A stretch of DNA of 64,000 bases from an uncultured Clostridia bacterium (GCA_944383415.1 CALWPK010000001.1:11261-75260); one strand, 5' to 3'. Positions 7,448 to 60,831 are shown, numbered from the stretch's first letter. Numbers and translations are program-made. The notes: generated from the sequence alone by a model not told the origin.

Positions 7448-8347
7448 ATGAGCAATTTGATCACACAACTTACAGCAAAACTGGAGAAATTGGGCGAAGA
7501 GATAGACACTCAGAAAGTAGGTGTCTATCGCCTTCAGCGAGAAATGCAGGAAAAGAAAAGAGAACTGAGATCTCTTCTCTACGAGTGGTCTAATGAGAAG
7601 AAGAAAAGTCTGCCTAATGAGCAAAAATATAATGCTATGGCAAATGAACTGCTAGAAGGCACCCCTATCAGCATAGGCGAACTGATGGATGGGCTGAAAA
7701 ACGCGTTGAATTGCGATGGCATAGACTATGTCGTCAGTCTGACGCGTCAAGACAACTACCCCTATTATCGTGAAGGAGAAGAGCAACGAAAATTTGATTA
7801 TTATAAAATGTGGCAATCGAACAATAATGACGACCGTTTCACAATAACGACAGCCAAAGACTCTATCTCTTGGCTCAAAAAGGATGTGGCTAGCAAAAAA
7901 TTTAGGGAAGAATATTTCCTAGACCACTCCGAGCGAAGTATCCGACTAGATATCTATTCCGGAGACAAGACTCTTGGCTATATCAACCTGCCACTTAATA
8001 GCAAATATACATTCAATGATGGTAGCACAATGACTGACCATATCGAAACGGACGGTGAAAAATGTAATTGTTACTCCAATGCGTTTGATCCTTTCAGATT
8101 TGGATATATTATGCAAACTATATATCTTGCTGTTAAATATTATTTGCCAAAGGATAGAATGAACTGCCTAGATGGTATGATGATCACTATCCCTGATATC
8201 ACTAGCAAAGATATACTCATCTCGCCAGATTTTGACAATAGGAAGAGGAATCACAAGCCAATGCAGTATGAGGATGTCAAACTCTTGATTCGAGCAATGT
8301 CCACTACCCTGAGCGCTAGAGGCGAAAAGACTGACAATATAGACTGA
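7448..8347 (+). CDS. Hypothetical protein (~300 aa): N-terminal coiled coil plus an unknown C-terminal domain
   Basis: ATG 7448 lies 5 nt after GGGAGG (the ORF-track start 7430 lacks an SD). The long ORF is coding-like. I recognise no motif. Confidence 0.7.
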   Translation: MSNLITQLTAKLEKLGEEIDTQKVGVYRLQREMQEKKRELRSLLYEWSNEKKKSLPNEQKYNAMANELLEGTPISIGELMDGLKNALNCDGIDYVVSLTRQDNYPYYREGEEQRKFDYYKMWQSNNNDDRFTITTAKDSISWLKKDVASKKFREEYFLDHSERSIRLDIYSGDKTLGYINLPLNSKYTFNDGSTMTDHIETDGEKCNCYSNAFDPFRFGYIMQTIYLAVKYYLPKDRMNCLDGMMITIPDITSKDILISPDFDNRKRNHKPMQYEDVKLLIRAMSTTLSARGEKTDNID

Positions 8348-16167: not shown

Positions 16168-19100
16168 TTATACCTCAGCCAAAAATGACAATCTAATTCC
16201 AGAGTGTTGACTCCAAATATTATTTGCAAAATCAAATGTCAATTCTCTTACGTATTCTTGATTAATAGGTATGAACAAATACCAAACTCTAGCAGTCAAA
16301 GTATGCGTACCTGTAAATGTAGAATATGTACCAAATTCGCTTGATGATACAACTTTCACATTGTTGTTGTTTCCACTAGTGTTGTATGAAGTATTCCACT
16401 GTCCGCTATTGAATTCGGCCACTATCATAGTTTTGCCGTTGGATGTAGCATTGTCATTATTGACTACCACACTTTCCATTCTACCAGATGCTGCAGTACC
16501 CGCATAAATATTGTAATTATCAGCCGTGCCTGAAGCCATAGTGTTGGTATAATCTCTCCAAGTTTCACGATAGAATGTTCCGTATCCGTTCAATGCGCTA
16601 TTGACTGTAGCATTTCTTAGTGTTGCAGTATTAGGGAAGATCAAAACTAACAGAGATGTCCTAGTATCATTCGTCCTACCATATAATTCGCTTACTGCTT
16701 GAATATCTGTCATTTCGCCAGAGGTGAAATTATAACATACTCCCGCTACGAACTTATCTCCTGTGATGTAGTTTTCAGATATAGCATTTGTATCTGGGTT
16801 GAATCCGCCAACCAATACTTGATTTATTTTCGCACCCACGTTGGCCATATTTACAACCACTCCAGAAACATAGTTTCCATATATGTCTGAACCTGCGATT
16901 GCTTGAGAGATAGAAGATCTGCTAGTTGAGTTGTTCGCTGCAATTCCGCCCACATAGAAGTTTTTGCCTGCATAGTATGAGCCGACTGTTTCCATCAGGT
17001 TGTACGCGTTGGTGATAGTCGCATTGTTTGTAGCAACGATTCCGCCTACATAGATATAAGACGCATTGATATTGCTAATTGAGATACCTCTACCTGTCAA
17101 ACGAACTTCAGATACCGTTCCGTTGTTTATAGCACTCGCACCACCTACGTACAATATGCGGTTAGTTTGCGAAATTGCGATATGAAGTTCAAGTGAAGAG
17201 TTCGTGATTGTACCATTATTTTCCGCACTGATACCTCCAACATACGCATCGATATCATTGCTAGAATATGTAATGTTTGCACTGCCTGACACGTTGTTGA
17301 TAGTGCCTGCGTTGACTGCTACTACACCTGCTAGTCTTTGACTTCCGTAAATGCTCGAAGCGGAGATTGTAGAATTCATTAAAATTCCGCTATCAATTCC
17401 TCCGACCAAACCGCCGACATAAGCAATGTTTGCGTTTGAAGTAATGTCCAATCCGCTGACACTACTATTAGTGATAGTTGAATTATCGTCCAATTTCGCC
17501 ACCAATCCGCCGAAATATGAAGATTGCAAGTTGATTGAAGATTCGAACTCAACTTTGACATTGTCTATATATGACGCACTATTGATAGACTCAGAGATGA
17601 CTTCACCAGCCAATGCACCTACATTTGTAGCCGAACTAGTGATATTGAATCTAACATTTTCAAGAGTCAAGTCTCGAACGGTCGAATTGTTTATCACTGA
17701 GAATAGTCCAGTATTTCCATCTTCCAAGGTGGTCAAATTCAGACCGATGATAGAATATCCATTTCCGTCAAATGAACTATTTCTGAGTTCTACTGGAGTC
17801 CAATCAATTCCTGTCAAGTCAACATCGCCATTCAAAACTATTTTCTTATCAACAATCGCTCCATTGCCTTCTTGGATATATTGTTCAATCTTTTCAATGA
17901 ATGTTTGACCATTATCTTCTGCTGTGCCATCTCCTGGATTATCTGGATTGCTAGGATCGTCTGGATCAATAGGGTCAGTAGGTTCGCCTATGTTGTCCTC
18001 TTCCATATCTCTTAGATAATATTCGCTAGAGACTGCACTTAAACTTGCGTTGGTCATTCTAAGTTCAGGTAGGGAACCAATCACAATGTCCCACGCTGAA
18101 TTGTCCCAATAAACTCTATTTTGTCCATCTATTGCATAGAAGATATATTCTGTGTTTGCTTCCAATAGATCTTCAGAATTATAATTGACAATGAAGTAGA
18201 TATGATTTGAACTATCGTAGAAACCTTTATCAAAGAATGTCTCGTCATAATTATTCACAACGCCAGTTCCACCATTGATCGTATAATTTCCGATCAAATG
18301 TCTTAACTGATTTGCATTCGCACTAACGAAGTTTGTACCCGCTTCTATTGTGCCAATAAATGACCCAAAGTTTACATACTCACTCGTAGATACTGAATAT
18401 GATTCTTGAATAGTACCATTATATGTAGAGATTACCAATTTACCAGCAAAACCACCCACGTTTCCGCTCGCATTCATCATAATGATGTCTGAGTCTGCGA
18501 AGGTTGCTTGCACTTTCGCTCTGTCAATCTCTCCTATCAGTCCACCTACCGTTGATGAGATATTAGAAGGGGTAGGATTTGCTTGACTTGATGCCGTGCC
18601 GATGGTGATCGTAGCGTTCTGAACACTAGAGATTGTGACCAAAGAATTTTCTCCCAATAAACTTCCGATCAATCCACCAGTCTTTGAGTTATTCATTGTG
18701 TTATTGATGCTTACATCCACTGCCTGTACTCTAGTGACAGTACCACTGACAATTCCTGCTAAAGCACCTGCTGTTTGATAGTTTCCATCTATCTCAACAC
18801 CTGACAGGTTCAAGTCTGATACTTTCGCACTGGCGCTCAATTGGGTAAATAGTCCAGCGTTTGCATAATCTGTTCCAGTCAAATGTAATGAACTGATAGT
18901 CTTGCCATTTCCATTGAATGTACCGCTAAACCCAATTGTCGTATTCGTATATCCTATTGGCTTGAAATCTTGAGTAAGGGTAATATCTGACATCAAAAGA
19001 TAACTTGAACTCAACGAATATGCATCTCCTATCTTTTCCAAATCTGCCTGACTATCAATGTAATAAGGGTTGTCTTGAGTGCCCTCTCCTATATGTACGC

Positions 19101-19431
19101 TGATTTGAAACTCTGGATATTTGTCATTGGTTGTGGTGATGATCAAGATCACTTCGCCACCCTTGTTTGCCACATAATAACCTTTATCCTCGTCGAAACT
19201 AATATATTCGGTGACTTCTTCACCCCCAGCGTTGTAGTCATAGGTGGTATTCCTATGCTCTTTATAGACTGTGTGGCCTAAATCGTCTAAGGTCACCACA
19301 TCGCCAACATTACAATAGATCTCTTTAGTTTTGAAGTCTATTGCTTCATCATTGCGCAAGAAATAATAAGTAGTGAGACCAATACATACAACTACCACGA
19401 TTGCTACTAGAAAAATTAAAAATTTCTTCAT
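16168..19431 (-). CDS. Large membrane-anchored surface protein with GLUG-like beta-helix repeats (1087 aa)
   Basis: Signal-anchor MKKFLIFLVAIVVVVCIGLTTYYF. Two entry segments (...DLEKIGDAYSLSSSYLLMSDITL...FSGTFNGNGKTISSLHL... and ...DVDLTGIDWTPVELRNSSFDGNGYSIIGLNL...). Each is followed by many turns such as VGGLIGEI, VGGFAGKL, FGGLVAKL, VGGLVGGI, VGGISAEN. Confidence 0.85.
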   Translation of the reverse strand: MKKFLIFLVAIVVVVCIGLTTYYFLRNDEAIDFKTKEIYCNVGDVVTLDDLGHTVYKEHRNTTYDYNAGGEEVTEYISFDEDKGYYVANKGGEVILIITTTNDKYPEFQISVHIGEGTQDNPYYIDSQADLEKIGDAYSLSSSYLLMSDITLTQDFKPIGYTNTTIGFSGTFNGNGKTISSLHLTGTDYANAGLFTQLSASAKVSDLNLSGVEIDGNYQTAGALAGIVSGTVTRVQAVDVSINNTMNNSKTGGLIGSLLGENSLVTISSVQNATITIGTASSQANPTPSNISSTVGGLIGEIDRAKVQATFADSDIIMMNASGNVGGFAGKLVISTYNGTIQESYSVSTSEYVNFGSFIGTIEAGTNFVSANANQLRHLIGNYTINGGTGVVNNYDETFFDKGFYDSSNHIYFIVNYNSEDLLEANTEYIFYAIDGQNRVYWDNSAWDIVIGSLPELRMTNASLSAVSSEYYLRDMEEDNIGEPTDPIDPDDPSNPDNPGDGTAEDNGQTFIEKIEQYIQEGNGAIVDKKIVLNGDVDLTGIDWTPVELRNSSFDGNGYSIIGLNLTTLEDGNTGLFSVINNSTVRDLTLENVRFNITSSATNVGALAGEVISESINSASYIDNVKVEFESSINLQSSYFGGLVAKLDDNSTITNSSVSGLDITSNANIAYVGGLVGGIDSGILMNSTISASSIYGSQRLAGVVAVNAGTINNVSGSANITYSSNDIDAYVGGISAENNGTITNSSLELHIAISQTNRILYVGGASAINNGTVSEVRLTGRGISISNINASYIYVGGIVATNNATITNAYNLMETVGSYYAGKNFYVGGIAANNSTSRSSISQAIAGSDIYGNYVSGVVVNMANVGAKINQVLVGGFNPDTNAISENYITGDKFVAGVCYNFTSGEMTDIQAVSELYGRTNDTRTSLLVLIFPNTATLRNATVNSALNGYGTFYRETWRDYTNTMASGTADNYNIYAGTAASGRMESVVVNNDNATSNGKTMIVAEFNSGQWNTSYNTSGNNNNVKVVSSSEFGTYSTFTGTHTLTARVWYLFIPINQEYVRELTFDFANNIWSQHSGIRLSFLAEV

Positions 19432-28503: not shown

Positions 28504-28992
28504 TTAACCTTTTTTCTCTGCGATAGCTTTAAATGCACGAGCAAGACCTGAAACTGGTGCATTGAGGACGTATAGCAATTGAGCAACAAGTTGTTCTTTT
28601 GTAGGAATGCTAGCAAGCGTTTTAACTTCATTCTCATCCATAACTTTGCCATTATAGTAACCAGCCTTGATAGACAATGAAGTATAATCTTTCATAGCAT
28701 TTTTTACCAACCTAGGAGCAACTGTCTCATCATCCAAGCCAAACGCAAATGCAGTAGTACCATTGAGTGCTTCGTCAAAACCTGTGATACCCAATTGCTC
28801 ACAAGCCTTTTTGAAAAGAGTGTTTTTAATAACTTTGTAAACAACATTATTATTACGCATTTCCTTTCTCAAAGCGGTGTCTTGACTAACAGTGATACCG
28901 CGATAGTCTACCAAAACAATTGACTTCGAAGACTCGATCAACTTCTTGATTTCTTCTACCGCAACTTTTTTTGCTTCTTGATTTGCTGACAC
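28504..28992 (-). CDS. rplJ: 50S ribosomal protein L10
   Basis: 162 aa. GTG start after GGAGG. ...IVLVDYRGITVSQDTALRKEMR... Lies upstream of rplL. Confidence 0.95.
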   Translation of the reverse strand: MSANQEAKKVAVEEIKKLIESSKSIVLVDYRGITVSQDTALRKEMRNNNVVYKVIKNTLFKKACEQLGITGFDEALNGTTAFAFGLDDETVAPRLVKNAMKDYTSLSIKAGYYNGKVMDENEVKTLASIPTKEQLVAQLLYVLNAPVSGLARAFKAIAEKKG

Positions 28993-29146
28993 TTTAATCC
29001 TCCTTTATGCTATTAAATAAAAATTCCTTTTGCCAAGACAAAAGGAACTCAATATATCGACATTCTTTTCTCTTCCTACACAAGCAACTAATGTTTTACG
29101 CTCTCGCACTTGTGGTCTTTGGCTAGAATTTTATTTAACTTGTATT
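28993..29146 (-). promoter_or_regulatory. L10 (rplJ) leader with an intrinsic attenuator hairpin
   Basis: ~150-nt leader between the promoter and the GTG. Minus strand reads TTCCTTTTG-tcttgg-CAAAAGGAA (29047..29024), then TTTTT, just before the SD. This is the arrangement of Firmicute L10-leader autoregulatory RNAs. Confidence 0.6.
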
Positions 29147-51986: not shown

Positions 51987-52173
51987 GAAATTTGGATAAA
52001 TATATAATTTTGTATAATTAATTTGTTGAAAACAAATATGAAAAAAATATTACAATGTACTATGGGAACAATACTTTGAAAAAACACTGAAAATAAAATA
52101 AAAATAATTATATTTGTTTTTTCTTTAATTTTTTATAAAAATTCAAAAAATTTTATTTTTCAATGAAAATATA

Positions 52174-52201
52174 TTGAAAATTTAATATTTTTTGCTATAA
52201 T
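52174..52201 (+). promoter_or_regulatory. Candidate promoter of ttcA
   Basis: TTGAAA (52174..52179), 16 nt, TGC-TATAAT (52196..52201). Confidence 0.5.
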
Positions 52202-52234
52202 TTAATAAAATTTTTAAATTTTTTTGGAGTGAAT

Positions 52235-52957
52235 ATGCAAAAAATTCTCAGCACATTGCGAAAGGCGATACAAAAATATGACCTAATTCAAGATGGAGAC
52301 AGGATCGCTGTCGGAGTATCTGGAGGAAAAGATAGTTTGGTACTGCTCAAAGCATTATCAGATTTTAGAAAATTCAACTTGTTCAAATTCGAGTTGTTCG
52401 CTGTGACGATAGATATATATTCAGGCGAAGTGAGTTATGATAGACTCAATGAATTTTGCCAAGAAATAGACGTCCCACTGATTATTGAAAAGACAGATAT
52501 AAAGCATATCGTATTTGATATAAGGAAAGAAAAAAATCCCTGCTCTCTATGTGCCAAAATGAGAAGAGGAGCATTGAACTCGGTATGTCAAAGACTCCAA
52601 TGCAATAAACTTGCTCTAGCACACCATTTGCAAGACGTGGTGACCACATTTTTCATCTCTTTGATATACGAAGGACGTCTCTCAACTATGCTACCAAAAT
52701 CATATATGTCAAGATCAAATATTACCTTGATTCGCCCACTATATTTGACAGATGAAAAGAATATAATCAGTTGTAGCAGGAACTATCCGATTTTGAAAAG
52801 TCGTTGCCCCGCAAATGACAATTCAAAGCGTAAGGAAATCAAAGATTTTGTAAGAGAAATTGATCAACGATTTCCCCAGTCTAGAAAGCGAATTGAAACT
52901 GCAATTCTTACCTCTGAAAGTTATAATCTTTTGGACAAAGTTAATAAAGATAAATAG
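52235..52957 (+). CDS. ttcA: TtcA-family PP-loop ATPase (tRNA 2-thiocytidine biosynthesis-like)
   Basis: PP-loop VGVSGGKDS and CSLCAKMRRGAL. ATG 52235 lies 5 nt after GGAG (the ORF-track GTG is at 52229). Confidence 0.85.
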   Translation: MQKILSTLRKAIQKYDLIQDGDRIAVGVSGGKDSLVLLKALSDFRKFNLFKFELFAVTIDIYSGEVSYDRLNEFCQEIDVPLIIEKTDIKHIVFDIRKEKNPCSLCAKMRRGALNSVCQRLQCNKLALAHHLQDVVTTFFISLIYEGRLSTMLPKSYMSRSNITLIRPLYLTDEKNIISCSRNYPILKSRCPANDNSKRKEIKDFVREIDQRFPQSRKRIETAILTSESYNLLDKVNKDK

Positions 52958-53151
52958 ATAACTATTCTATTGATTAATATTATACACAAAGAAATTCAAA
53001 ATATAATTTCTCGATAATCAAAAGACTTTTATGAGATTTGTTATGATTTTCAAACGTTGTTCAGAGTCAATCAATTCATAAACTAAATCAGATATTAATT
53101 ATAGTGCTGACATTGTAGCATAGACAATTCATCACTTTCAAATTTTCAATC

Positions 53152-53182
53152 GACACAAAACGACAGTTTTTGTGTTTTTTTT
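53152..53182 (+). terminator. Rho-independent terminator ~195 nt downstream of ttcA
   Basis: acacaaaa - cgacagt - ttttgtgt followed by T8. Confidence 0.7.
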
Positions 53183-53238
53183 GCTAAATTTGTCATAATT
53201 TAGCACATAAAAAAATAGGTTAAATCAAGGAGTTTAAA

Positions 53239-53538
53239 ATGAATTATATTGACCTTGATGAGCGAACGATAAAACTAGCATATTACATACTAGAAAATCA
53301 TACCACAATCAGAGCCACCGCAAAAGCATTCCATATACCTAAGAGTACAGTACATAACGATTTGAGCAAAAAATTAAAATATATAAATTATAATTTGTTT
53401 TTACAAGTGAAAAAACTGATGGAAGAAAATTTCAGCATAAAACACATTCACGGCGGAGAATCCACAAAACTAAAATACGAAGCACTGAAAAAAGAGATCG
53501 ACAAAAATGATGAGAGCGAAGCATTATACGGACTTTAA
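53239..53538 (+). CDS. spoIIID: Sporulation transcriptional regulator SpoIIID family
   Basis: 99 aa. ...ERTIKLAYYILENHTTIRATAKAFHIPKSTVHNDLSKKL...HIHGGESTKLKYE matches the SpoIIID HTH and the C-terminal GGExTKxKY motif. Confidence 0.88.
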   Translation: MNYIDLDERTIKLAYYILENHTTIRATAKAFHIPKSTVHNDLSKKLKYINYNLFLQVKKLMEENFSIKHIHGGESTKLKYEALKKEIDKNDESEALYGL

Positions 53539-53539
53539 T

Positions 53540-53563
53540 AGAAGGGCAAATCCCTTCTTTTTG
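53540..53563 (+). terminator. Rho-independent terminator of spoIIID
   Basis: gaaggg - caaat - cccttc followed by TTTTT. Confidence 0.8.
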
Positions 53564-53564
53564 A

Positions 53565-54049
53565 ATATTTATTATTTTATTGAATCTATTAATTTTATTT
53601 TATAGACAGTCAATTATTTTTATCTAAACGATATCAAATTTTGTAAAAATTCAAATAATATTATATCTTTCCATTAGATAAGCAACAATCGACCAATGCG
53701 AATAAAAAAAAATAATAAAACTAACTAAAATAAATTTATAATATTAATTATATTTAATAAATTTTTTATTATTTCATTAATTTTTTTATTTTTTATTAAT
53801 ATTTGATGTTTTTTATTATTTTTTTATATATTATCTCTAATTTTTAATTATTTTTTATATATTTCTCTAATTTTTTTATATTTTTTTATTATTTTAAATT
53901 TTTGTTTTTTATATTTTAGTGTTTAAATTTTAGTTCTTATGTTTTTCCATTTTAATTTGTTCAAATACAATTCTCATTTTGATTCGGTTGATGTTTCGTT
54001 TTTATTATAATTAATCTATGCTATTGAATTATATAATTTTCGATGCTTA
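53565..54049. other. Ultra AT-rich spacer between convergent genes, T-tract-rich on the plus strand
   Basis: Direct count over 53701..53940 gives 14 G+C in 240 nt (5.8 %). Imperfect direct repeats ttatctctaattttta (about 53831) and atttctctaattttttt (about 53861). Confidence 0.8.
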
Positions 54050-54964
54050 TTACTTTAAAAACCCTTCAATAATTTTTTCTTCCGCTTGCTTTTCACTCAA
54101 ACCCAAAGTCATCAATTTCATAATCTGTTCACTGGCAATTTTCCCAATCGCTGCCTCGTGACTAAGTGATGCCTGTGATGAATGTGCACTGACCTTTGGG
54201 GCGGAATCAATTTTCGAATTTTCTAGCACAATACCATCGCACTCTACGTGACCGAAACACTCATTTTTCCCTATCAGTTCACTCTTGAAAGTTTGCTCAC
54301 TTTCATCGCGTGCGACACTTCTTGAAATAATATTGCATTTGGAATTTTTCCCTTGAAGATATACTTTGAAATTCGTTTTCGCCACATTGAAATTGGATGT
54401 CAATATTTTTTCTTTCACCTCAAGAGTGCTATCATTCTTCAAATATGCCTTCGTCTCTCTAGAGGAATAATCAACTCCTCCCAATTGATTCGTCTCCATT
54501 GTCATCGTGCTACCCTCACCCAAGCGGATGATGGTGACAGGATTGATTTCTTTCCCTCCGCCATTTCCTAATGCCAAATGATTTTCCAAATATAACACTT
54601 TTGCATTCTTGCCAATATGGAAAGTGTGTATTCCGTTGTGACCCGCTTCAGCAGAGGAGTGTACTCCACAGCCCGCCACTATCACAACGTCCGCATCGTC
54701 CTCGATATAAAAATCATTGTACACCAAATCAAATATTCCCGCCTCGCTTACCACAACGGGTATATGGCACGCTTCTTTTTGGCAACTAGAGTGAACGAAA
54801 ATATCTATGCCTGAACCATCGCCTTTTTTCATTATCTCAATGTTTGGAGTGGAGCGGACAAACTCTCCCTTACCATTTTTCCTAAACGAAACCGCACCGT
54901 CAGGAAGCGCGTGAATATTGGCTATTTTTTCTAACAAATTTTGTGAAATTTTATCCAACTTCAT
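54050..54964 (-). CDS. sufB: SufB/SufD-family Fe-S cluster assembly protein (short, 304 aa)
   Basis: C-terminal ...HSSQASLSHEAAIGKI..EQIMKLMTLGLSEKQAEEKIIEGF is typical of SufB/D. Lies immediately after sufC. Confidence 0.8.
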   Translation of the reverse strand: MKLDKISQNLLEKIANIHALPDGAVSFRKNGKGEFVRSTPNIEIMKKGDGSGIDIFVHSSCQKEACHIPVVVSEAGIFDLVYNDFYIEDDADVVIVAGCGVHSSAEAGHNGIHTFHIGKNAKVLYLENHLALGNGGGKEINPVTIIRLGEGSTMTMETNQLGGVDYSSRETKAYLKNDSTLEVKEKILTSNFNVAKTNFKVYLQGKNSKCNIISRSVARDESEQTFKSELIGKNECFGHVECDGIVLENSKIDSAPKVSAHSSQASLSHEAAIGKIASEQIMKLMTLGLSEKQAEEKIIEGFLK

Positions 54965-54965
54965 A

Positions 54966-55667
54966 CTAATCCTCCCTGACCAATTTGCACTTGTATTTTT
55001 GCAGTTTGTCGATTATTTCGTTTGAATTGCCAAAATTTGAGACTTTTCCATTCTCAAGCACCAAAATTTTATCTGCCCGCTTTAGCAATCTAGATTGATG
55101 GCTAACCACGATATAACAAATATTTTTTTCAAATATTTCATTTAGTTTGTCAAAACTCCACAAATCAATTCCCGCCTCAGGCTCGTCAAAAATCACACAC
55201 TCGCCACCTTTTGCTAGAGTCAATGCCAATTCTATTCGTTTTTGTTCTCCGCCTGACAATGTTTTGTCAAACTCACGATTGATATAATCCTTTGCACATA
55301 TACCCACGCGCGAGAGATATTCGCACGCTTTTGACAATGAATTGTCCTCTTTTGATGCAATGTCTATCAATTCCTTTATTGTGATACCTCTGAACGTTAC
55401 AGGCTGTTGAAACGCGTAAGTTATGCCCATTTTCGCACGTTCATCCACTGTCGTGTCAGTAATATCCTTTCCATTGAAATAGATTTTTCCGCTAGTCGGC
55501 GAAAGAATTCCCATTATTATTTTGGTCAAAGTTGACTTTCCACTGCCATTTTGCCCTGTAATTGCAGTTATGCAGTTGTCATAAAACGTACAATTAATGT
55601 CGTTTAGCAGGGTTTTTTCTTTTTCATTATCCATAATCGTGTAATATATATGTTTAAGTTCTATCAT
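54966..55667 (-). CDS. sufC: Fe-S cluster assembly ABC ATPase SufC-like
   Basis: Walker A GQNGSGKST, signature LSGGEQKR, Walker B VIFDEPEAGID. Adjacent to the SufB/D-like gene. Confidence 0.82.
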   Translation of the reverse strand: MIELKHIYYTIMDNEKEKTLLNDINCTFYDNCITAITGQNGSGKSTLTKIIMGILSPTSGKIYFNGKDITDTTVDERAKMGITYAFQQPVTFRGITIKELIDIASKEDNSLSKACEYLSRVGICAKDYINREFDKTLSGGEQKRIELALTLAKGGECVIFDEPEAGIDLWSFDKLNEIFEKNICYIVVSHQSRLLKRADKILVLENGKVSNFGNSNEIIDKLQKYKCKLVRED

Positions 55668-55683: not shown

Positions 55684-55712
55684 ATTTTAGCATAAACTAC
55701 GCAACAAATCAA
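55684..55712 (-). promoter_or_regulatory. Sigma-A type promoter of sufC-sufB/D
   Basis: Minus strand reads TTGATT (55712..55707), 17 nt, TGC-TAAAAT (55689..55684), then a GAGG SD. Confidence 0.55.
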
Positions 55713-55736: not shown

Positions 55737-56525
55737 TTACACTGGTTCAAAATAGGTGTGGAATTCCAATCTAAAGTTATCCACGTTGAGAGTTTCTTCA
55801 TAGGCATTATCCAACACGACTCCTCTACACAGATTGATAGTTTGTCCACCCTTAATTGGCTGGCTACTATAATAATATCCATCATCACCATTGTAGAAAA
55901 GATCTCTATTCGGATAATACACTATAATATTCTCTAATGATTCATCATTCTGGAAAACATCAATTCTGAATCGCACATTGAAATCCCCCCTACTCTCAAT
56001 TTTGATGCTGAACTGTGCACGCAAGACGCGATTTCCCTGCAGATTGTTTGGAGTCCTGAATCTGCTCATTTCCACCCCATCAACTACATAGGTGGCATTG
56101 CAATTGCCGTGTGTATATAAAAAACAATTGTTCTGCAAATACACCATAGTTGCGTATAAGACTATACCCAAAATTGAAGCCAATAGCAAGACCACGAGTG
56201 CCAAAATGATGACACGATTTCTTTTCGTTCTGCTCCTATAATATTTTAAATTTTGTTCGTTGAGTTCTTCCAACTCTTCCAGTGCCGTACTGTTAGACAT
56301 CTGTCGTGATTTGGTCAAGGGAATGTCTTGATATGAAAGACTATTCGTCTGAAGATTTTGATTATTTTTTTCTTTCTGCTTTTTTTCTTTCTTTAACTTT
56401 TTTTCCTTTTTCTTCCTATTCTTGTCATCTTCAGGTTCGTAGTTGTTGTAGATGTCAATTGGAAAATCCGCGTAAGTATCTAGTGGCAAATCATTTTTTT
56501 CGTATTTATTGAAAAAATGTTTCAT
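55737..56525 (-). CDS. Bitopic membrane protein (262 aa), last gene of the SipW cluster
   Basis: GGGGGTGA SD lies 10 nt after the upstream stop. It has a ~100-aa Lys/Glu-rich cytoplasmic N-terminus (KKKEKKLKKEKKQKEK), one TM (VIILALVVLLLASILGIVLYATMVYL), and a ~140-aa beta-rich ectodomain. Confidence 0.75.
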   Translation of the reverse strand: MKHFFNKYEKNDLPLDTYADFPIDIYNNYEPEDDKNRKKKEKKLKKEKKQKEKNNQNLQTNSLSYQDIPLTKSRQMSNSTALEELEELNEQNLKYYRSRTKRNRVIILALVVLLLASILGIVLYATMVYLQNNCFLYTHGNCNATYVVDGVEMSRFRTPNNLQGNRVLRAQFSIKIESRGDFNVRFRIDVFQNDESLENIIVYYPNRDLFYNGDDGYYYSSQPIKGGQTINLCRGVVLDNAYEETLNVDNFRLEFHTYFEPV

Positions 56526-56535
56526 ACTTCACCCC

Positions 56536-57198
56536 CTACGCCTGCGGATCGACATCATATCCTTCCACCGTTAGCACCAACTTCAAGTTGTTGCCATTGA
56601 TGGTCGAATAGTTGCCCGCGAATGCAAAGTCCGAATACGGAATCATAAATGATCCAATCAGGGTAGCATCATCTTGAGAAGTAAGTGTCTGATTTTCCCC
56701 CTCATTGTTTCGATAATAGAAATAGCCGTCCGTAGGATCGTATACAAAGCCATTTGAATTTCCCGTAGGTGTAGTATACCCAGAAATGTTGGGATGAAGC
56801 AAAATGTCATAATTATTGCCACAAGCGTACAATTCAATTTTGTATCTAACATACAGCGACTGATTTCCTTCATCACTATTCCTAAGAACTAAATTCAAAG
56901 TATAATTTTGATCTGGGACTATCTCTCTAGAATCTGTCCCGTCCGTAATATCAATATAACTAGGAGTAGTAGCCGTCTGATTGTCCTCATTGGTATTAAT
57001 CAACACCTCTGTGCCGTCAGTTTTGACTTGATAGAGTTCTATGTCAATCTGACCGATATGTACTTCTATTTCTATTTTCTTGTTTTCGCCCGAAGTAAAC
57101 CACGAATTTGTGATCCCTATGATCGCCAAGAAAATACTCAACAGTAAAATCATTACTGTCAAAATCTTTAATTGAGAATATTTTTGAAATCTTTTCAC
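56536..57198 (-). CDS. TasA/camelysin-like secreted protein with SipW-cognate-type signal (~220 aa)
   Basis: GTG 57198 overlaps the upstream TAG (TAGTG) and lies 11 nt after GGAG; the ORF-track TTG at 57207 sits too close to the SD. Signal ...LLLSIFLAIIGITNS-WFTSGE, then IEVHIGQIDIELY, parallel to the neighbouring paralog. Confidence 0.65.
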   Translation of the reverse strand: MKRFQKYSQLKILTVMILLLSIFLAIIGITNSWFTSGENKKIEIEVHIGQIDIELYQVKTDGTEVLINTNEDNQTATTPSYIDITDGTDSREIVPDQNYTLNLVLRNSDEGNQSLYVRYKIELYACGNNYDILLHPNISGYTTPTGNSNGFVYDPTDGYFYYRNNEGENQTLTSQDDATLIGSFMIPYSDFAFAGNYSTINGNNLKLVLTVEGYDVDPQA

Positions 57199-57875
57199 TA
57201 TGCCCAACTCTCCAGATACCCCCAGCCGTCATTAAAGACAGAGAGATATGCTTGATTTTCTGACTGAACTGCCTCAAATGTTATAGACAAATTGATCTGC
57301 GAATTCAACAATGCCACAGGAGCAGTTTCCAACAATTTTATTGAAGAAGCGAACACTCTTCGAACATTACCAGCCACCTCTTCTTCAATGTAATATATCG
57401 CATTTGTCTCATTGCCAACTGTAAGGACACGCCTTGTGACAAAATTTCCACCCTGAAATTCGAAATACTGCCCATAATTTACCGATTCGTCAATCGTTTC
57501 ATTTATAACCTTATATGCGTTGATTCTATATCGGATATAACTCGGAGTCGAATCGGACGTACTGCTGAATGCTAAATATTGAATGTCCGCACCAGATTCC
57601 GTTGCCAGATATATCGTGCCTCCTCTTGAAATCACTCCTGTTGAGTCGCTAGGATATATCTTCAGAGTATCTGTATCTACAATTGTGTCTACGTTGTTTG
57701 ACCTATAGGCGAAACGTATATCAAGATTGGAAAATTGAATATTCCCAGTCACTCGTTTGCTTGCCGTAAAGTATGCATAAGTCACATTGAAAGCAAACAA
57801 AAATATTAGAGTCAATATGACCAATAGCCCCAATAATTTAATTTGTTTGCTCGTATTTTTCACGCCACTCCTCAT
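57198..57875 (-). CDS. TasA/camelysin-like secreted protein with SipW-cognate class signal peptide (225 aa)
   Basis: ...LTLIFLFAFNVTYA-YFTASKRVTGNIQFSNLDIRF. The T-[YF]-A-x-F-[TN]-[DSA] motif is the hallmark of SipW substrates (TasA ...GTWA-AFND). C-terminal ...ITFEAVQSENQ. ATGA overlap with the upstream gene. Confidence 0.7.
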   Translation of the reverse strand: MRSGVKNTSKQIKLLGLLVILTLIFLFAFNVTYAYFTASKRVTGNIQFSNLDIRFAYRSNNVDTIVDTDTLKIYPSDSTGVISRGGTIYLATESGADIQYLAFSSTSDSTPSYIRYRINAYKVINETIDESVNYGQYFEFQGGNFVTRRVLTVGNETNAIYYIEEEVAGNVRRVFASSIKLLETAPVALLNSQINLSITFEAVQSENQAYLSVFNDGWGYLESWA

Positions 57876-60250
57876 TTAAAATAATCTTCAAATAATGCTT
57901 GCACTTCGCTTCCCCAACTCGCTAATGTATTAGACGTATATGTATCGGTTGCCACAATTGTGGTAAGCGTAGATGGTGTATTGCTTGACATATTTAGGCG
58001 AATAATTTGTCCAGGTCGTACTATGCCAATGTAATAATTATAGTCGCCAATGCGTTCAACATTTGGGACGGAAGAATCCACCGAACCTGTAAATCTCACG
58101 TAATACGAGTTGGTAGAACTGTTGCTAATATATGCGTACTGACTAGTGCTATTGACGATTTCAATTCTGTTGTCCACCCTATTTGATGCTCCTTGTGCTG
58201 ACATCGTGAAAACTAATTCATTATTCGTGTTTGATATGACTACGCTTAAAATTTTTGCACTCTCATTTGGTTTGAGAGAAAGAGATGAAGAAACGTATCG
58301 ATTGCTAGACAAAGTGAAATTATTGTATAAAGTAGCATTATTAAGACTTATATTTGACGTCGTATAAGACAACGAATAATATTGATTGCTAACCCACTGG
58401 TCAAATCCAAACGGATTTGATTGCACTTGTATATACTGCCCATCGCTTAAATAATAATATGTCCAGAAACTGCTTTCCCAATCGCTAGGTTTAACTGTCT
58501 GGAGAGCATAGGTAGGCACGCGTTGAGAAAGGTTGATTTGTGCACTGACATTGGAGATAACTTCGTTTGATTTATTTTTCACATTAAAAGTGACTGTTGT
58601 ACTAGAACTTCCGCGCACAGCACTTGCCTCAACTTCCAAAGCATTAGTTGTGATAGAATCACTCACTGTCTGATAATTAATATCGGTGACGACGAGTTCT
58701 ACCCAAGCATCATATCTTCCAGAATATCGTTGCAAAATCGTGTTGGCTAGCGAGACACTAAACGAACTGCAAATATTTATTGTCGTGTATGGTGCAATGT
58801 AGACATTGCTACCTATATTGTTCGCTGATAAACTGATTGCCATAGAATCTTCTTGCCTATACCAAAGATTGCTAGAATTGGAAAATGAATCTCCTTCATG
58901 CACAGTATGATTGCCATTACTAAGAGTATATTTTAGTTCAAATGTCACACTGGTTACTCTTATTTTTGAGGAAGTATTGTTGCTAAGGCTAACGTTCGTA
59001 TTAAAGGTCTGGCTACCTCCCGTCATACCTAGTGTGACATCGTATAATCCAGGCAGGTATTTACCCGTGTTGATGACCTCTATATCTTGTTGCTCATAAG
59101 GAGTCGTATCAGAAAATGTCCCAGCAGATTGAATATCCGTTGACAACATTCCGTTCGTAAAATTCGAATTTGTAAATGTGACATTGTTGAAGAGAAGAGA
59201 TGTGGAAACGGCAAAATACGAGTAGTTCTCCAACGCTGACACTGTTCTACAAGTGATCTCAATGCTATCTACAAGGTCAATATACACTGCTGAGTTCGCT
59301 GGAATGGAATATCTATAATGCACCATTTCAAACGTGCTATCCACTTGATAACCTTCAAAGATCCAATCATCAGAGTAATTGTATAAAATATTGTTATCTA
59401 TGACCGACAAGGTCGTATCCTCAATCGACTGCCACGAACCAGACGCCGAGATACTGATTGTGACAGGGCTATTACCAGTGATGATATATGCCGATAGTCC
59501 AGCATAATATCTATTCCCGCCTGCCCAAATTGATGAAATCACTCTTCCGTCCGTCACCGACTTGTAATACGCACTCTCGACACCTGGATGAGTGACATAA
59601 TACTGACGTTCAGAACGCTTATTATAAAGCAAAACATAGGCATCACCTGCTATTGAAGATGGATTTTTATATTTTAGCCACGCATCACCCGCTTCACTGT
59701 CAATGTAAAGCGGATGACTTTCAGAATAGGACTCCATTTCCTTATAGACTCTAACTTCGTCAATATTGATCGTGAGGGATGCTCCGATGTAGGATTCGTC
59801 CTCTTCATCAATGAAATCCACACCTGTAAAGATGCTGAGCGTGCCATTTCCTGCTGGTATTGTATCTTTGTAATAAATATACTCATTGTCAACTATATAA
59901 CTATCTCTATTCGCAAAGTGCAAAATCACATTGTTGATATCGTTATTTATTCCGCCCGTCCACTCTAGCGAATATTTTATGCGTATGTCAAAATTGTATC
60001 CAAAGGAGTATTTTATTTTGACCTCTTGATTGTGAAATCCTTGAGAGAATAATATAGGATTGTCTATAGTGTCGTTTACAATTGCGTATTGCTGATTCGT
60101 TGCATAAGTCGTAGTAGAATATGAGTCATTACCATATTCTGAGTTTAAAATCTCCATAGCGAAAGTGTATCCTATAGAGAATGCAAAGACTAGACCTAAC
60201 AATAGGTTCAATATAATTATCAAATATTTCTTTGTCTTTGCTCTTTTCAT
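57872..60250 (-). CDS. Large secreted protein (792 aa) with a TasA-type N-terminus
   Basis: TAATG overlap with the sipW stop. MKRAKTKKYLIIILNLLLGLVFAFSIGYTFA-MEIL. Asn/Ser/Thr/Tyr-rich beta-type sequence with no recognised catalytic motif. Confidence 0.7.
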   Translation of the reverse strand: MKRAKTKKYLIIILNLLLGLVFAFSIGYTFAMEILNSEYGNDSYSTTTYATNQQYAIVNDTIDNPILFSQGFHNQEVKIKYSFGYNFDIRIKYSLEWTGGINNDINNVILHFANRDSYIVDNEYIYYKDTIPAGNGTLSIFTGVDFIDEEDESYIGASLTINIDEVRVYKEMESYSESHPLYIDSEAGDAWLKYKNPSSIAGDAYVLLYNKRSERQYYVTHPGVESAYYKSVTDGRVISSIWAGGNRYYAGLSAYIITGNSPVTISISASGSWQSIEDTTLSVIDNNILYNYSDDWIFEGYQVDSTFEMVHYRYSIPANSAVYIDLVDSIEITCRTVSALENYSYFAVSTSLLFNNVTFTNSNFTNGMLSTDIQSAGTFSDTTPYEQQDIEVINTGKYLPGLYDVTLGMTGGSQTFNTNVSLSNNTSSKIRVTSVTFELKYTLSNGNHTVHEGDSFSNSSNLWYRQEDSMAISLSANNIGSNVYIAPYTTINICSSFSVSLANTILQRYSGRYDAWVELVVTDINYQTVSDSITTNALEVEASAVRGSSSTTVTFNVKNKSNEVISNVSAQINLSQRVPTYALQTVKPSDWESSFWTYYYLSDGQYIQVQSNPFGFDQWVSNQYYSLSYTTSNISLNNATLYNNFTLSSNRYVSSSLSLKPNESAKILSVVISNTNNELVFTMSAQGASNRVDNRIEIVNSTSQYAYISNSSTNSYYVRFTGSVDSSVPNVERIGDYNYYIGIVRPGQIIRLNMSSNTPSTLTTIVATDTYTSNTLASWGSEVQALFEDYFK

Positions 60251-60831
60251 TATGCGTCGAGTATCCTCCTATCACGTTTGAATTCTATCTCATTTTGCAC
60301 TGTAGCGCTAACGCACCAGATCGATACAATAATAGCGATTATCAGCAGTTTATGATCCCCAATGAAATTGAAGTACGATCCCCAGTTGTCGAAACTCGCC
60401 ACAACTTTTCCTTCAATTTTTGATAATGTGACGCGCTGAATACTGATATCCTGTGATATTTCTTCCCAAGTCATATTTCCCAAATCTTCTGACGTCAGGT
60501 CATTCACATTATCACCGTGACAAAGATAATAAGTCGTGCCGTTTACTTCTCTGATCTCTAAGAGTCTATGAGTAGTAGGAGTACCCGAACTATCAAATTT
60601 TAAGATATCACCGACCTCGTATTCGTCTTGCGCTTTCACTACAACCATATCGCCCGCCGTAAACACTGGAGCCATACTGTCTGACAGTACTTCGTATGGC
60701 CTAAATTTGAAGCCATACACAAGTACCAAACAAACTACAAGTATAATACATATTGCTAGCACAATATTATACATCAAAAGTTTAAAGAAATTGAATGCTT
60801 TGTTCTCCAAAATTTCGTCTGAATAATTCAT
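60250..60831 (-). CDS. sipW: Signal peptidase I, ER/archaeal type (SipW-like)
   Basis: 193 aa. N-terminal TM, catalytic Ser box VLSDSMAPVF, His box PTTHRLLE, HGDNVND, and a C-terminal TM LLIIAIIVSIWCVSATV as in SipW. Confidence 0.85.
   Translation of the reverse strand: MNYSDEILENKAFNFFKLLMYNIVLAICIILVVCLVLVYGFKFRPYEVLSDSMAPVFTAGDMVVVKAQDEYEVGDILKFDSSGTPTTHRLLEIREVNGTTYYLCHGDNVNDLTSEDLGNMTWEEISQDISIQRVTLSKIEGKVVASFDNWGSYFNFIGDHKLLIIAIIVSIWCVSATVQNEIEFKRDRRILDA

Follow-up and report, generated by a model that had tools for sequence, protein, structure and literature searches.

The end of a 64,000-nucleotide (nt) stretch of an uncultured Clostridia bacterium (GCA_944383415.1 CALWPK010000001.1:11261-75260; the window) carries a six-gene cassette on the minus strand, which encodes a lipoprotein of ~2,950 amino acids (aa), an S26B signal peptidase, and proteins of 792, 221-225, 220-223, and 262 aa (Table 1). 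The cassette is considered here as a candidate locus for a TasA-type surface filament. The original prediction described five chained genes headed by sipW, and the open reading frame (ORF) listing of the window contained all five minus-strand ORFs, at 55737-60831 as predicted. The junctions that had been reported were also found in the sequence: a TAATG at 60250, in which the peptidase stop and the start of the 792-aa gene overlap by one base; an ATGA at 57872-57875 between the 792-aa and 225-aa ORFs; a TAGTG at 57198 between the 225-aa and 223-aa ORFs; and a 10-nt gap (GGGGTGAAGT) before the ATG of the 262-aa gene at 56525. No intrinsic-terminator-like site was found on the minus strand inside the five genes. 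The gene chain does not begin at the peptidase. The peptidase gene is preceded by a giant ORF (60843 to beyond 63968, open at the window end) whose stop codon is 11 nt from the peptidase start, with an AAGGAG in the gap, and which is part of the operon; the prediction had missed this conserved lipoprotein gene at the operon head.

The two small proteins probably start downstream of the first codons of their ORFs, whose lengths are used here as names. The real start of the 225-aa ORF is almost certainly the GTG at 57863, which lies just behind an AGGAG and would give a protein of 221 aa and a gap of 8 nt. A start codon was present at the aligned position in 23 of 23 relatives, behind a Shine-Dalgarno sequence and 1-23 nt past the preceding stop. 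Because the gene probably starts at this GTG, the ATGA overlap is probably incidental. For the 223-aa gene the most likely start is the GTG of the TAGTG, which would give 220 aa, and a database protein 99% identical to it is called at that length.

Table 1. Genes of the cassette and catalytic residues of its peptidase, with candidate roles and the evidence used.
Feature	Coordinates	Strand	Evidence or remark
Giant surface lipoprotein, C-terminal ~1,050 codons	60843..64000	-	Cassette gene 1, cut by window end
S26B signal peptidase, 193 aa	60250..60831	-	TIGR02228, catalytic boxes, membrane segments
Peptidase catalytic residue Ser52	60676-60678	-
Peptidase catalytic residue His88	60568-60570	-
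Peptidase catalytic residue Asp107	60511-60513	-
792-aa secreted multi-domain all-beta protein, candidate distal/tip subunit	57872..60250	-	Motif, AlphaFold2 model, module comparison
225-aa ORF (probably 221 aa), small TasA-related protein, candidate major shaft subunit	57198..57875	-	Motif, AlphaFold2 model, profiles
223-aa ORF (probably 220 aa), second small paralog, candidate minor/adaptor subunit	56536..57207	-	Profile comparison, motif
262-aa bitopic membrane protein, candidate basal anchor/terminator	55737..56525	-	Hydropathy, ectodomain profile comparison

The peptidase had been identified as an endoplasmic reticulum/archaeal-type (S26B) enzyme with Ser, His, and GDN boxes and a C-terminal membrane segment, and this identification was borne out. 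The window protein contains the motifs SDSMAP, THR, and GDN, has hydrophobic membrane segments near both termini (residues 12-46 and 156-174), and passes the TIGR02228 (sigpep_I_arch) model with 54.4 bits (cut-off 51.85); for a distant cassette the peptidase score was 76.2 bits. Among 27 homologs, 26-27 retain Ser52, His88, and Asp107. The protein is 27% identical to Bacillus SipW (E 2e-10), with the S-x-S-M-x-P, T-H-R, and G-D-N boxes aligned. Its score against the Bacillus SipW equivalog model NF046067 was 34.5 bits, below the 190-bit cut-off, and an exact-sequence look-up returned no record. By these comparisons of sequence the enzyme is SipW-like and not a SipW ortholog.

Three proteins encoded downstream of the peptidase gene had been predicted to carry SipW-type signal peptides, and alignments of homologs revealed a conserved cleavage-type motif with small residues at -3 and -1 in each of them. 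The motif of the 792-aa protein is F22-A-x-x-x-G27-x-T29-[YF]30-[A/C/S]31 (about 60158-60172), and its +1 residue is variable. The 225-aa family has T32-[YF]-[S/A]34 followed by Y35-F36 (T32-Y-A34 in the window, about 57768-57782), with Y35 and F36 invariant and [S/A]34 in 27 of 27 sequences. The corresponding motif of the 223-aa family is T33-N-[A/S]35 followed by W36-F-T (T33-N-S35 in the window, about 57094-57111), in which W36 and [A/S]35 were each found in 26 of 26. The N-termini of the window cassette proteins are Lys-rich and of the Sec type, and a twin-arginine motif is absent from them. Distant relatives of the 225-aa protein carry the canonical motif G-x-T-Y-A-Y-F-S-A. The model of the SipW-cognate signal, TIGR04088 (34 positions, 19-bit cut-off), matched 3 of 17 close and 16 of 28 distant 225-aa relatives (best E 6e-7); PF12389 (Peptidase_M73) matched 9 of the 28 distant relatives, and the BsaA family model TIGR04090 weakly matched three of them and one extra cassette protein. 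Membership of the window signals in the SipW-cognate class is thus supported through intermediate sequences. Type IV prepilins were considered and rejected, given that the hydrophobic stretch precedes the conserved motif instead of following it. An LPXTG-like motif was found in none of the six proteins and no sortase ORF in the cassette; because the motif is absent, the system is not sortase-dependent, and a sortase-assembled pilus is excluded. Elsewhere in the window, a 1,087-aa ORF (16168-19431, minus strand) has an N-terminal hydrophobic segment ending in GLTTYYF, and the cleavage-motif pattern did not match it.

Homologs of the 792-aa family were detected in 26 genomes in a scan that included one genome per species. 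All 26 are metagenome-assembled genomes of uncultured Clostridia, Ca. Onthoplasma, or 'Christensenella sp.', and Ca. Onthoplasma is placed in the order Christensenellales. The conservation of gene order that the prediction had called for was evident among the loci drawn from these genomes: the order giant-peptidase-792-225-223-262 was identical in 22 of 22 complete loci, and the giant gene headed every one of them. Contigs with 225-aa relatives at 41-79% identity had the same neighbor genes. The gene order is conserved far beyond chance; it is invariant across relatives in which the identity of the 792-aa protein falls from 76 to 29%. In distant contigs, where the 225-aa homolog is ~20% identical, the cassette recurs beside different flanking genes. 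All five downstream families were re-found there by hidden Markov models built from the close families, and the upstream giants were found by blastp to be homologous to the window giant (24% identity over ~800 aa, E 1e-18 to 1e-25). The cassette is a functional module and not merely inherited synteny. A word-indexed search with the 225-aa protein returned 20 clusters, none of them annotated, and an exhaustive profile search with its family returned 208 cluster representatives at E <= 1e-3. A word-indexed search with a profile of distant relatives added little and gave no name other than 'hypothetical protein'.

The cassettes vary in the size and number of their subunits. The second small gene is missing in the distant cassette L018. 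Loci L015 (12371-13195) and L016 (4211-5050) have an added gene, of a kind that the window lacks, for a protein of 224-279 aa with a GGTYAYF SipW-type signal; these added proteins pass TIGR04088 (31 and 22.7 bits), and one also passes the PF12389 cut-off. The 225-aa homolog is expanded to 347 aa in L013 and L054, the 223-aa homolog is a 590-aa ORF in L047, and the 262-aa homolog is enlarged to 397-453 aa in L001/L038 and L037. One expanded shaft-type protein has an insertion of ~120 aa rich in Glu, Lys, and Leu, and the cytoplasmic head of one anchor homolog contains an additional hydrophobic insert of several segments. Loci L055 and L056, from an uncultured Christensenella sp., contain a 3,045-aa ORF for which no homology to the giant was detected, an ORF of 290 aa for the peptidase, and 792-aa homologs of 1,133-1,148 aa in which the match is confined to the N-terminal 163 residues. 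These two loci may represent a second, more divergent type of system.

The four structural proteins were compared as profiles with hhalign after removal of signal peptides and membrane segments, with z scores calculated against shuffled sequences. The 225-aa superfamily aligned with the 223-aa family at a probability of 97.8% (E 8.8e-13, z 57), which identifies the two small proteins as paralogs, as their similar first strands and C-termini had suggested. The ectodomain of the 262-aa protein aligned with the mature 223-aa family (93.6%, E 2.1e-7, z 14.7), with the 225-aa superfamily (80%, E 1.4e-5, z 11.7), and with the N-terminal domain of the 792-aa protein (79%, E 1.6e-5, z 9.6). The latter domain also aligned with the 225-aa superfamily (44%, E 2.3e-4, z 8.2). 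By these profile comparisons, one beta-sandwich module is common to all four proteins, the 262-aa ectodomain included. The AlphaFold2 model of the 225-aa protein (predicted local distance difference test, pLDDT, 86) consists of a signal helix at residues 8-37, a disordered segment at 39-47, and an all-beta sandwich.

A relationship of this module to TasA was sought with TasA as a single-sequence template. The TasA sequence was checked against 8AUR and 5OF1, and a contig-based attempt at a TasA profile returned only Bacillus orthologs 82-99% identical to it. The 159-sequence profile of the 225-aa superfamily aligned with mature TasA end to end and collinearly, with a score of 27.8 (E 7e-4, z 9.7) against 11.5 ± 1.7 for shuffled TasA. 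For the 223-aa family the z score was 4.1, and the C-terminal strand NGNNLKLVLTVEG aligned with TasA QGNSIKLQFSFEA. Direct comparisons of the 262-aa ectodomain and the 792-aa N-terminal domain with mature TasA were not significant. Two blocks are common to TasA and the superfamily, L-[KR]-x-G-D and the last strand G-x-[SN]-[IL]-K-[IL]-x-F-x-F-E-A-x-Q. It is probable from these alignments that the mature domains are remotely homologous to the TasA superfamily.

The 792-aa and 262-aa proteins combine the module with other parts. The AlphaFold2 model of the 792-aa protein (pLDDT 85.3, predicted template modeling score 0.81) has a signal helix, a flexible segment at residues 30-39, and approximately six beta-sandwich domains, of which the N-terminal one is related to the module and about five are additional, followed by a C-terminal helix. 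The protein had been predicted to be TasA-like; only its first ~145 mature residues are related to the module, and these moderately. A transglutaminase or macroglobulin function for the 792-aa protein was rejected, since the Foldseek matches to factor XIII, integrin legs, and alpha-2-macroglobulin had a template modeling (TM) score of about 0.1 and a root-mean-square deviation of >24 Å and reflect no more than generic strings of sandwich domains. The 262-aa protein, conserved throughout the cassettes, spans the membrane once, with a helix at residues ~101-131 (about 56133-56225) that separates a Lys-rich cytoplasmic head from an ectodomain of 130 aa; a juxtamembrane motif is also conserved. 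The alignment of this ectodomain begins at mature residue 20 of the 223-aa protein, and the 262-aa protein therefore has the sandwich without the N-terminal extension of its paralogs. Such a sequence fits a basal anchor. The idea of a 'membrane base', put forward in the original prediction, gains support from this paralogy with the small proteins and from the missing extension. N-N-C-F-L-Y-x-H-G follows the helix; N133 is invariant and C134-F-L-Y-x-H-G is conserved.

The giant lipoproteins are conserved partners of the peptidase gene. Full-length homologs of 2,895-3,115 aa were present in 22 loci with a conserved lipobox (e.g., LLFFGC), and their lipoprotein signal is followed by Big_2-like sequence; the window ORF has a weak GLUG motif. 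Because of the lipobox, the giant is expected to be a substrate of signal peptidase II and not of the S26B enzyme, and the giant lipoproteins were rejected as candidate substrates of the latter. Upstream of the homologous giant gene in L014 is an extremely AT-rich, non-coding region of 560 nt (7522-8083), which probably contains the promoter of the operon; its counterpart for the window cassette lies beyond the window. Rfam scans of this leader and of the window found no riboswitch, and the leader matched no Rfam family. A second giant ORF of 7,158 aa (30434-51910, minus strand) in the window also has a lipoprotein signal, with a VFSAC lipobox, and is not homologous to the cassette giant at E 1e-3. 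Its equivalents at the same position in close relatives are 4,005 and 6,988 aa long and are cut by the locus ends.

A catalytically intact S26B peptidase is thus adjoined by four proteins that share a paralogous module. On balance, the locus appears to be a six-gene operon for a TasA-superfamily surface filament, dependent on Sec and on a SipW-type peptidase, in uncultured gut Christensenellales. We infer fiber assembly, cleavage, polymerization, and the order of subunits by analogy with TasA (PMC9674648), BsaA (PMC11580942), and Tafi (PMC12337348). The subunits would be exported by Sec, and the peptidase would cut after G-x-T-[YF]-[A/S] and free an N-terminal segment. The segments after the proposed sites are conserved, and they are flexible in both confident models (residues 39-47 of the 225-aa and 30-39 of the 792-aa protein). 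The freed segment would insert as a donor strand into the sandwich of a neighboring subunit, as in TasA, BsaA, and archaeal Tafi/Abp fibers. Repeated copies of the ~221-aa protein would form the shaft. The 792-aa protein, with its five extra beta-sandwich domains, would be placed distally or serve in adhesion, and the ~220-aa protein would be a minor subunit or an adaptor. Able to accept a strand but with none to donate, the 262-aa protein would stop growth and tie the fiber to the membrane. The giant lipoprotein may be a co-expressed surface adhesin that acts with the fiber.

Several results weigh against a TasA-type filament. When the four structural proteins were scanned directly against Pfam and NCBIfam, no match rose above noise or reached a threshold for TasA, camelysin, BsaA, or the SipW-cognate signal. 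The TasA/camelysin family profile PF12389, by which the proposed relationship was to be checked, matched no window protein. TIGR04088 matched no window protein at E up to 1, nor the 225-aa protein at E up to 10, and TIGR04090 had no match among the window proteins. The PF12389 matches of the relatives span profile positions 8-66 of 196 only, which correspond to the signal peptide and first strand. The hhalign probability for the 225-aa superfamily against single-sequence TasA was 26%. Foldseek comparison of the 225-aa model with the PDB gave no match at E <= 0.001, and TasA was absent among the 50 matches listed. The best of these were p53-type and adhesin beta-sandwiches with a TM score of about 0.3; the p53-type sandwiches, the CLIPPER adhesin domain, and a cohesin-like module (E about 0.01) were regarded as generic beta-sandwich resemblance and not as homology. 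Searches of PDB sequences by phmmer and hmmsearch, with single proteins and two family profiles, found no TasA and only chance matches such as antibodies and an S-layer protein. Lastly, the conserved N-N-C/F-L-Y after the helix of the 262-aa protein would undo the anchor role if it were a cleavage site, which it could be. Of the TasA-like character that had been predicted, the weak collinear profile alignment of the mature 225-aa superfamily remains, set against the missing PF12389 match and the absence of TasA among the listed structures. The claim of SipW-cognate signals stands on the conserved motifs and on the 16 distant relatives that match TIGR04088, and it lacks a direct match in the window.

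A more specific form of the filament hypothesis, which we put forward tentatively, is an ordered, sortase-independent heteropolymeric pilus of a Gram-positive gut bacterium that assembles from tip to base in the order of its genes and is physically coupled to the 3,000-aa lipoprotein adhesin. In such a pilus the 792-aa protein would come first, and ~221-aa subunits would follow repeatedly, each left uncleaved by the peptidase until it has accepted the growing fiber's strand. The ~220-aa adaptor would be added next, and the uncleavable 262-aa paralog would then terminate and anchor the fiber. If true, archaeal Tafi pili would have a bacterial counterpart that depends on Sec, and chaperone-usher termination would have a functional analog.

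The fixed order of the genes also bears on a looser arrangement. The cassette could encode a matrix-type system like those of TasA and BsaA, in which one small protein polymerizes with itself into extracellular fibers, the other paralogs are accessory (a TapA-like nucleator or chaperone, or proteins like BsaB and BsaC), and tip, shaft, and base have no fixed order. The closest characterized bacterial systems behave so: in C. perfringens, BsaA polymers do not include BsaB, and secreted BsaC, a large protein, is monomeric. The absence of the second small gene from L018 and the extra canonical TasA-like gene in L015 and L016 likewise suggest flexible stoichiometric roles. Against this, the set of four paralogs and the order of their genes have been strictly maintained across wide divergence, and one of the four retains a membrane helix permanently and lacks the N-terminal extension, which parallels the proposed Tafi anchor TafF. 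We rate such a matrix-type system as rather unlikely.

It is quite improbable that the proteins form a non-polymeric, membrane-tethered complex, with some subunits perhaps uncleaved, that together with the peptidase helps to export, fold, process, or hold the giant lipoprotein. The presence of the giant gene in every complete cassette, 11 nt from the peptidase gene, would be explained by such a complex, the AlphaFold2 models run the signal helix through the proposed cleavage site, and Foldseek gave no fold-level support for a TasA-like donor-strand architecture. The lipobox nevertheless assigns the giant to signal peptidase II and not to an S26 enzyme, the small -3 and -1 residues followed by invariant aromatic residues fit the SipW-cognate class, and the mature domains are collinearly similar to TasA. 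A spore-surface or spore-coat assembly is highly improbable: TasA was reportedly first described as the spore-associated protein CotN, PDB entry 5OF1 names it 'spore coat-associated protein N', and in both the window (53239-53538) and close relatives the opposite strand carries a SpoIIID homolog ~2 kb downstream, but the spoIIID linkage is lost in distant cassettes with other flanks, which makes it shared synteny of one clade, and nothing else in the cassette is sporulation-specific.

The filament reading can be compared with several characterized systems. The original prediction knew of no described system with this composition, a statement that is wrong as worded (PMC11580942; PMC12337348; bioRxiv 10.64898/2026.01.04.697558). 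Multi-paralog TasA/BsaA operons with a signal peptidase have been described, and their authors suggest heteropolymers (PMC11580942). The TasA fibers encoded by tapA-sipW-tasA of B. subtilis assemble by donor-strand exchange (PMC9674648; PMC10151520). The cassette resembles that operon in its dedicated S26B peptidase, which likewise has two membrane segments and shares the catalytic boxes, and in a G-x-T-aromatic-A signal end, an N-terminal strand, a C-terminal F-x-F-E-A-x-Q strand, and an accessory paralog. Unlike it, the window has four paralogs instead of two, none of which reaches PF12389, a six-domain 792-aa subunit, a giant lipoprotein gene, and a paralog that keeps its membrane helix permanently and has a cytoplasmic head of 100 aa; its peptidase falls short of the SipW equivalog model.

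The sipW-bsaA-bsaB-bsaC locus of C. perfringens (PMC7395162; PMC11580942) comes from the same class, Clostridia, has no LPXTG on its fiber subunits, and consists of a peptidase gene followed by genes for a pair of small TasA-like paralogs and for one large protein. Anchoring of BsaA polymers in the membrane has been reported (PMC7395162; PMC11580942). The large protein, BsaC, belongs to the von Willebrand A proteins, in contrast to the 792-aa protein, which is all-beta and has no von Willebrand A match; the window also differs by its dedicated anchored paralog, its giant lipoprotein, and the absence of a TIGR04090 match. The BsaA isopeptide triad is Asn-Glu-Lys, and a 17-sequence alignment of the 225-aa family has no invariant Asn or Lys in the N-terminal segment.

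Haloarchaeal Tafi loci encode the pilins TafA and TafE, the tip TafC, the signal peptidase TafD, the anchor TafF, and TafG (PMC11821415; PMC12337348), and the Tafi anchor consists of one helix and a jelly-roll-like domain (PMC12337348). The cassette resembles Tafi/AbpX-type loci in its dedicated peptidase, large tip, major and minor pilins, and one-helix anchor; this is a match of architecture and a functional resemblance, and it says nothing of sequence membership. Tafi systems are archaeal and mostly Tat-dependent, in contrast to the Sec-type signals with Lys-rich n-regions in the window, and the cassette has neither a DUF5305 (TafG) partner, according to the Pfam scan, nor a regulator gene. 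In AbpX/AbpA clusters, TasA-superfamily fibers are encoded next to a TIGR02228-type peptidase, and minor subunits, predicted tips, and bacterial anchors are known (PMC9245690; bioRxiv 10.64898/2026.01.04.697558). The cassette likewise places a set of probable TasA relatives beside a TIGR02228-type peptidase. Bacterial AbpX anchors carry S-layer homology domains or LPXTG and the peptidase has ten helices, whereas the candidate anchor in the window is a bitopic paralog and the window peptidase has two membrane segments. Chaperone-usher pili offer a mechanistic analogy only, with ordered subunits, N-terminal donor strands, and an end subunit without a donor extension; a chaperone, an usher, and an outer membrane are all absent from the window system, whose proteins are not related to those of such pili. 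The cassette is most likely a divergent, unannotated branch of a known kind of system. It is distinct in its lineage, its very divergent and unannotated families, its Sec-type signals, the lack of a DUF5305 partner, its bitopic paralog anchor, and its invariant giant lipoprotein.

Christensenellales are common gut bacteria that have repeatedly been linked to host health and are almost uncultured. The cassette occurs in at least 26 species-level genomes, and its four structural families are all unannotated; it would extend the TasA superfamily into a new bacterial lineage. A layout of tip, shaft, adaptor, membrane-anchored terminator, and dedicated peptidase has so far been described mainly in archaea. 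The 262-aa paralog, which has lost the donor segment and kept a helix, provides a test case for the termination and attachment of TasA-type fibers. That a gene for a 3,000-aa lipoprotein always accompanies the cassette may indicate a combined adhesin-fiber apparatus.

The surroundings of the cassette do not share its conservation. Genes resembling SufC and SufD lie directly after it and have their own promoter-like site at 55684-55712. A very AT-rich stretch follows at 52001-54000, with a guanine-plus-cytosine (GC) content of 0.26, and it holds the SpoIIID homolog and an ATP_bind_3 (TilS/TtcA-like) gene; the ORFs of this region are located at 52229-52957 (plus strand), 53239-53538 (plus strand, the SpoIIID homolog), and 54050-55667 (minus strand). 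The SpoIIID, ATP_bind_3, and SufC/SufD neighbors are kept only in the close clade. An origin of the region from a mobile element or phage was rejected because its GC content is even. Farther away, a ribosomal protein L10 leader (Rfam RF00557, 55.6 bits) was detected at 29009-29140 on the minus strand, just upstream of a 162-aa ORF at 28504-28992.

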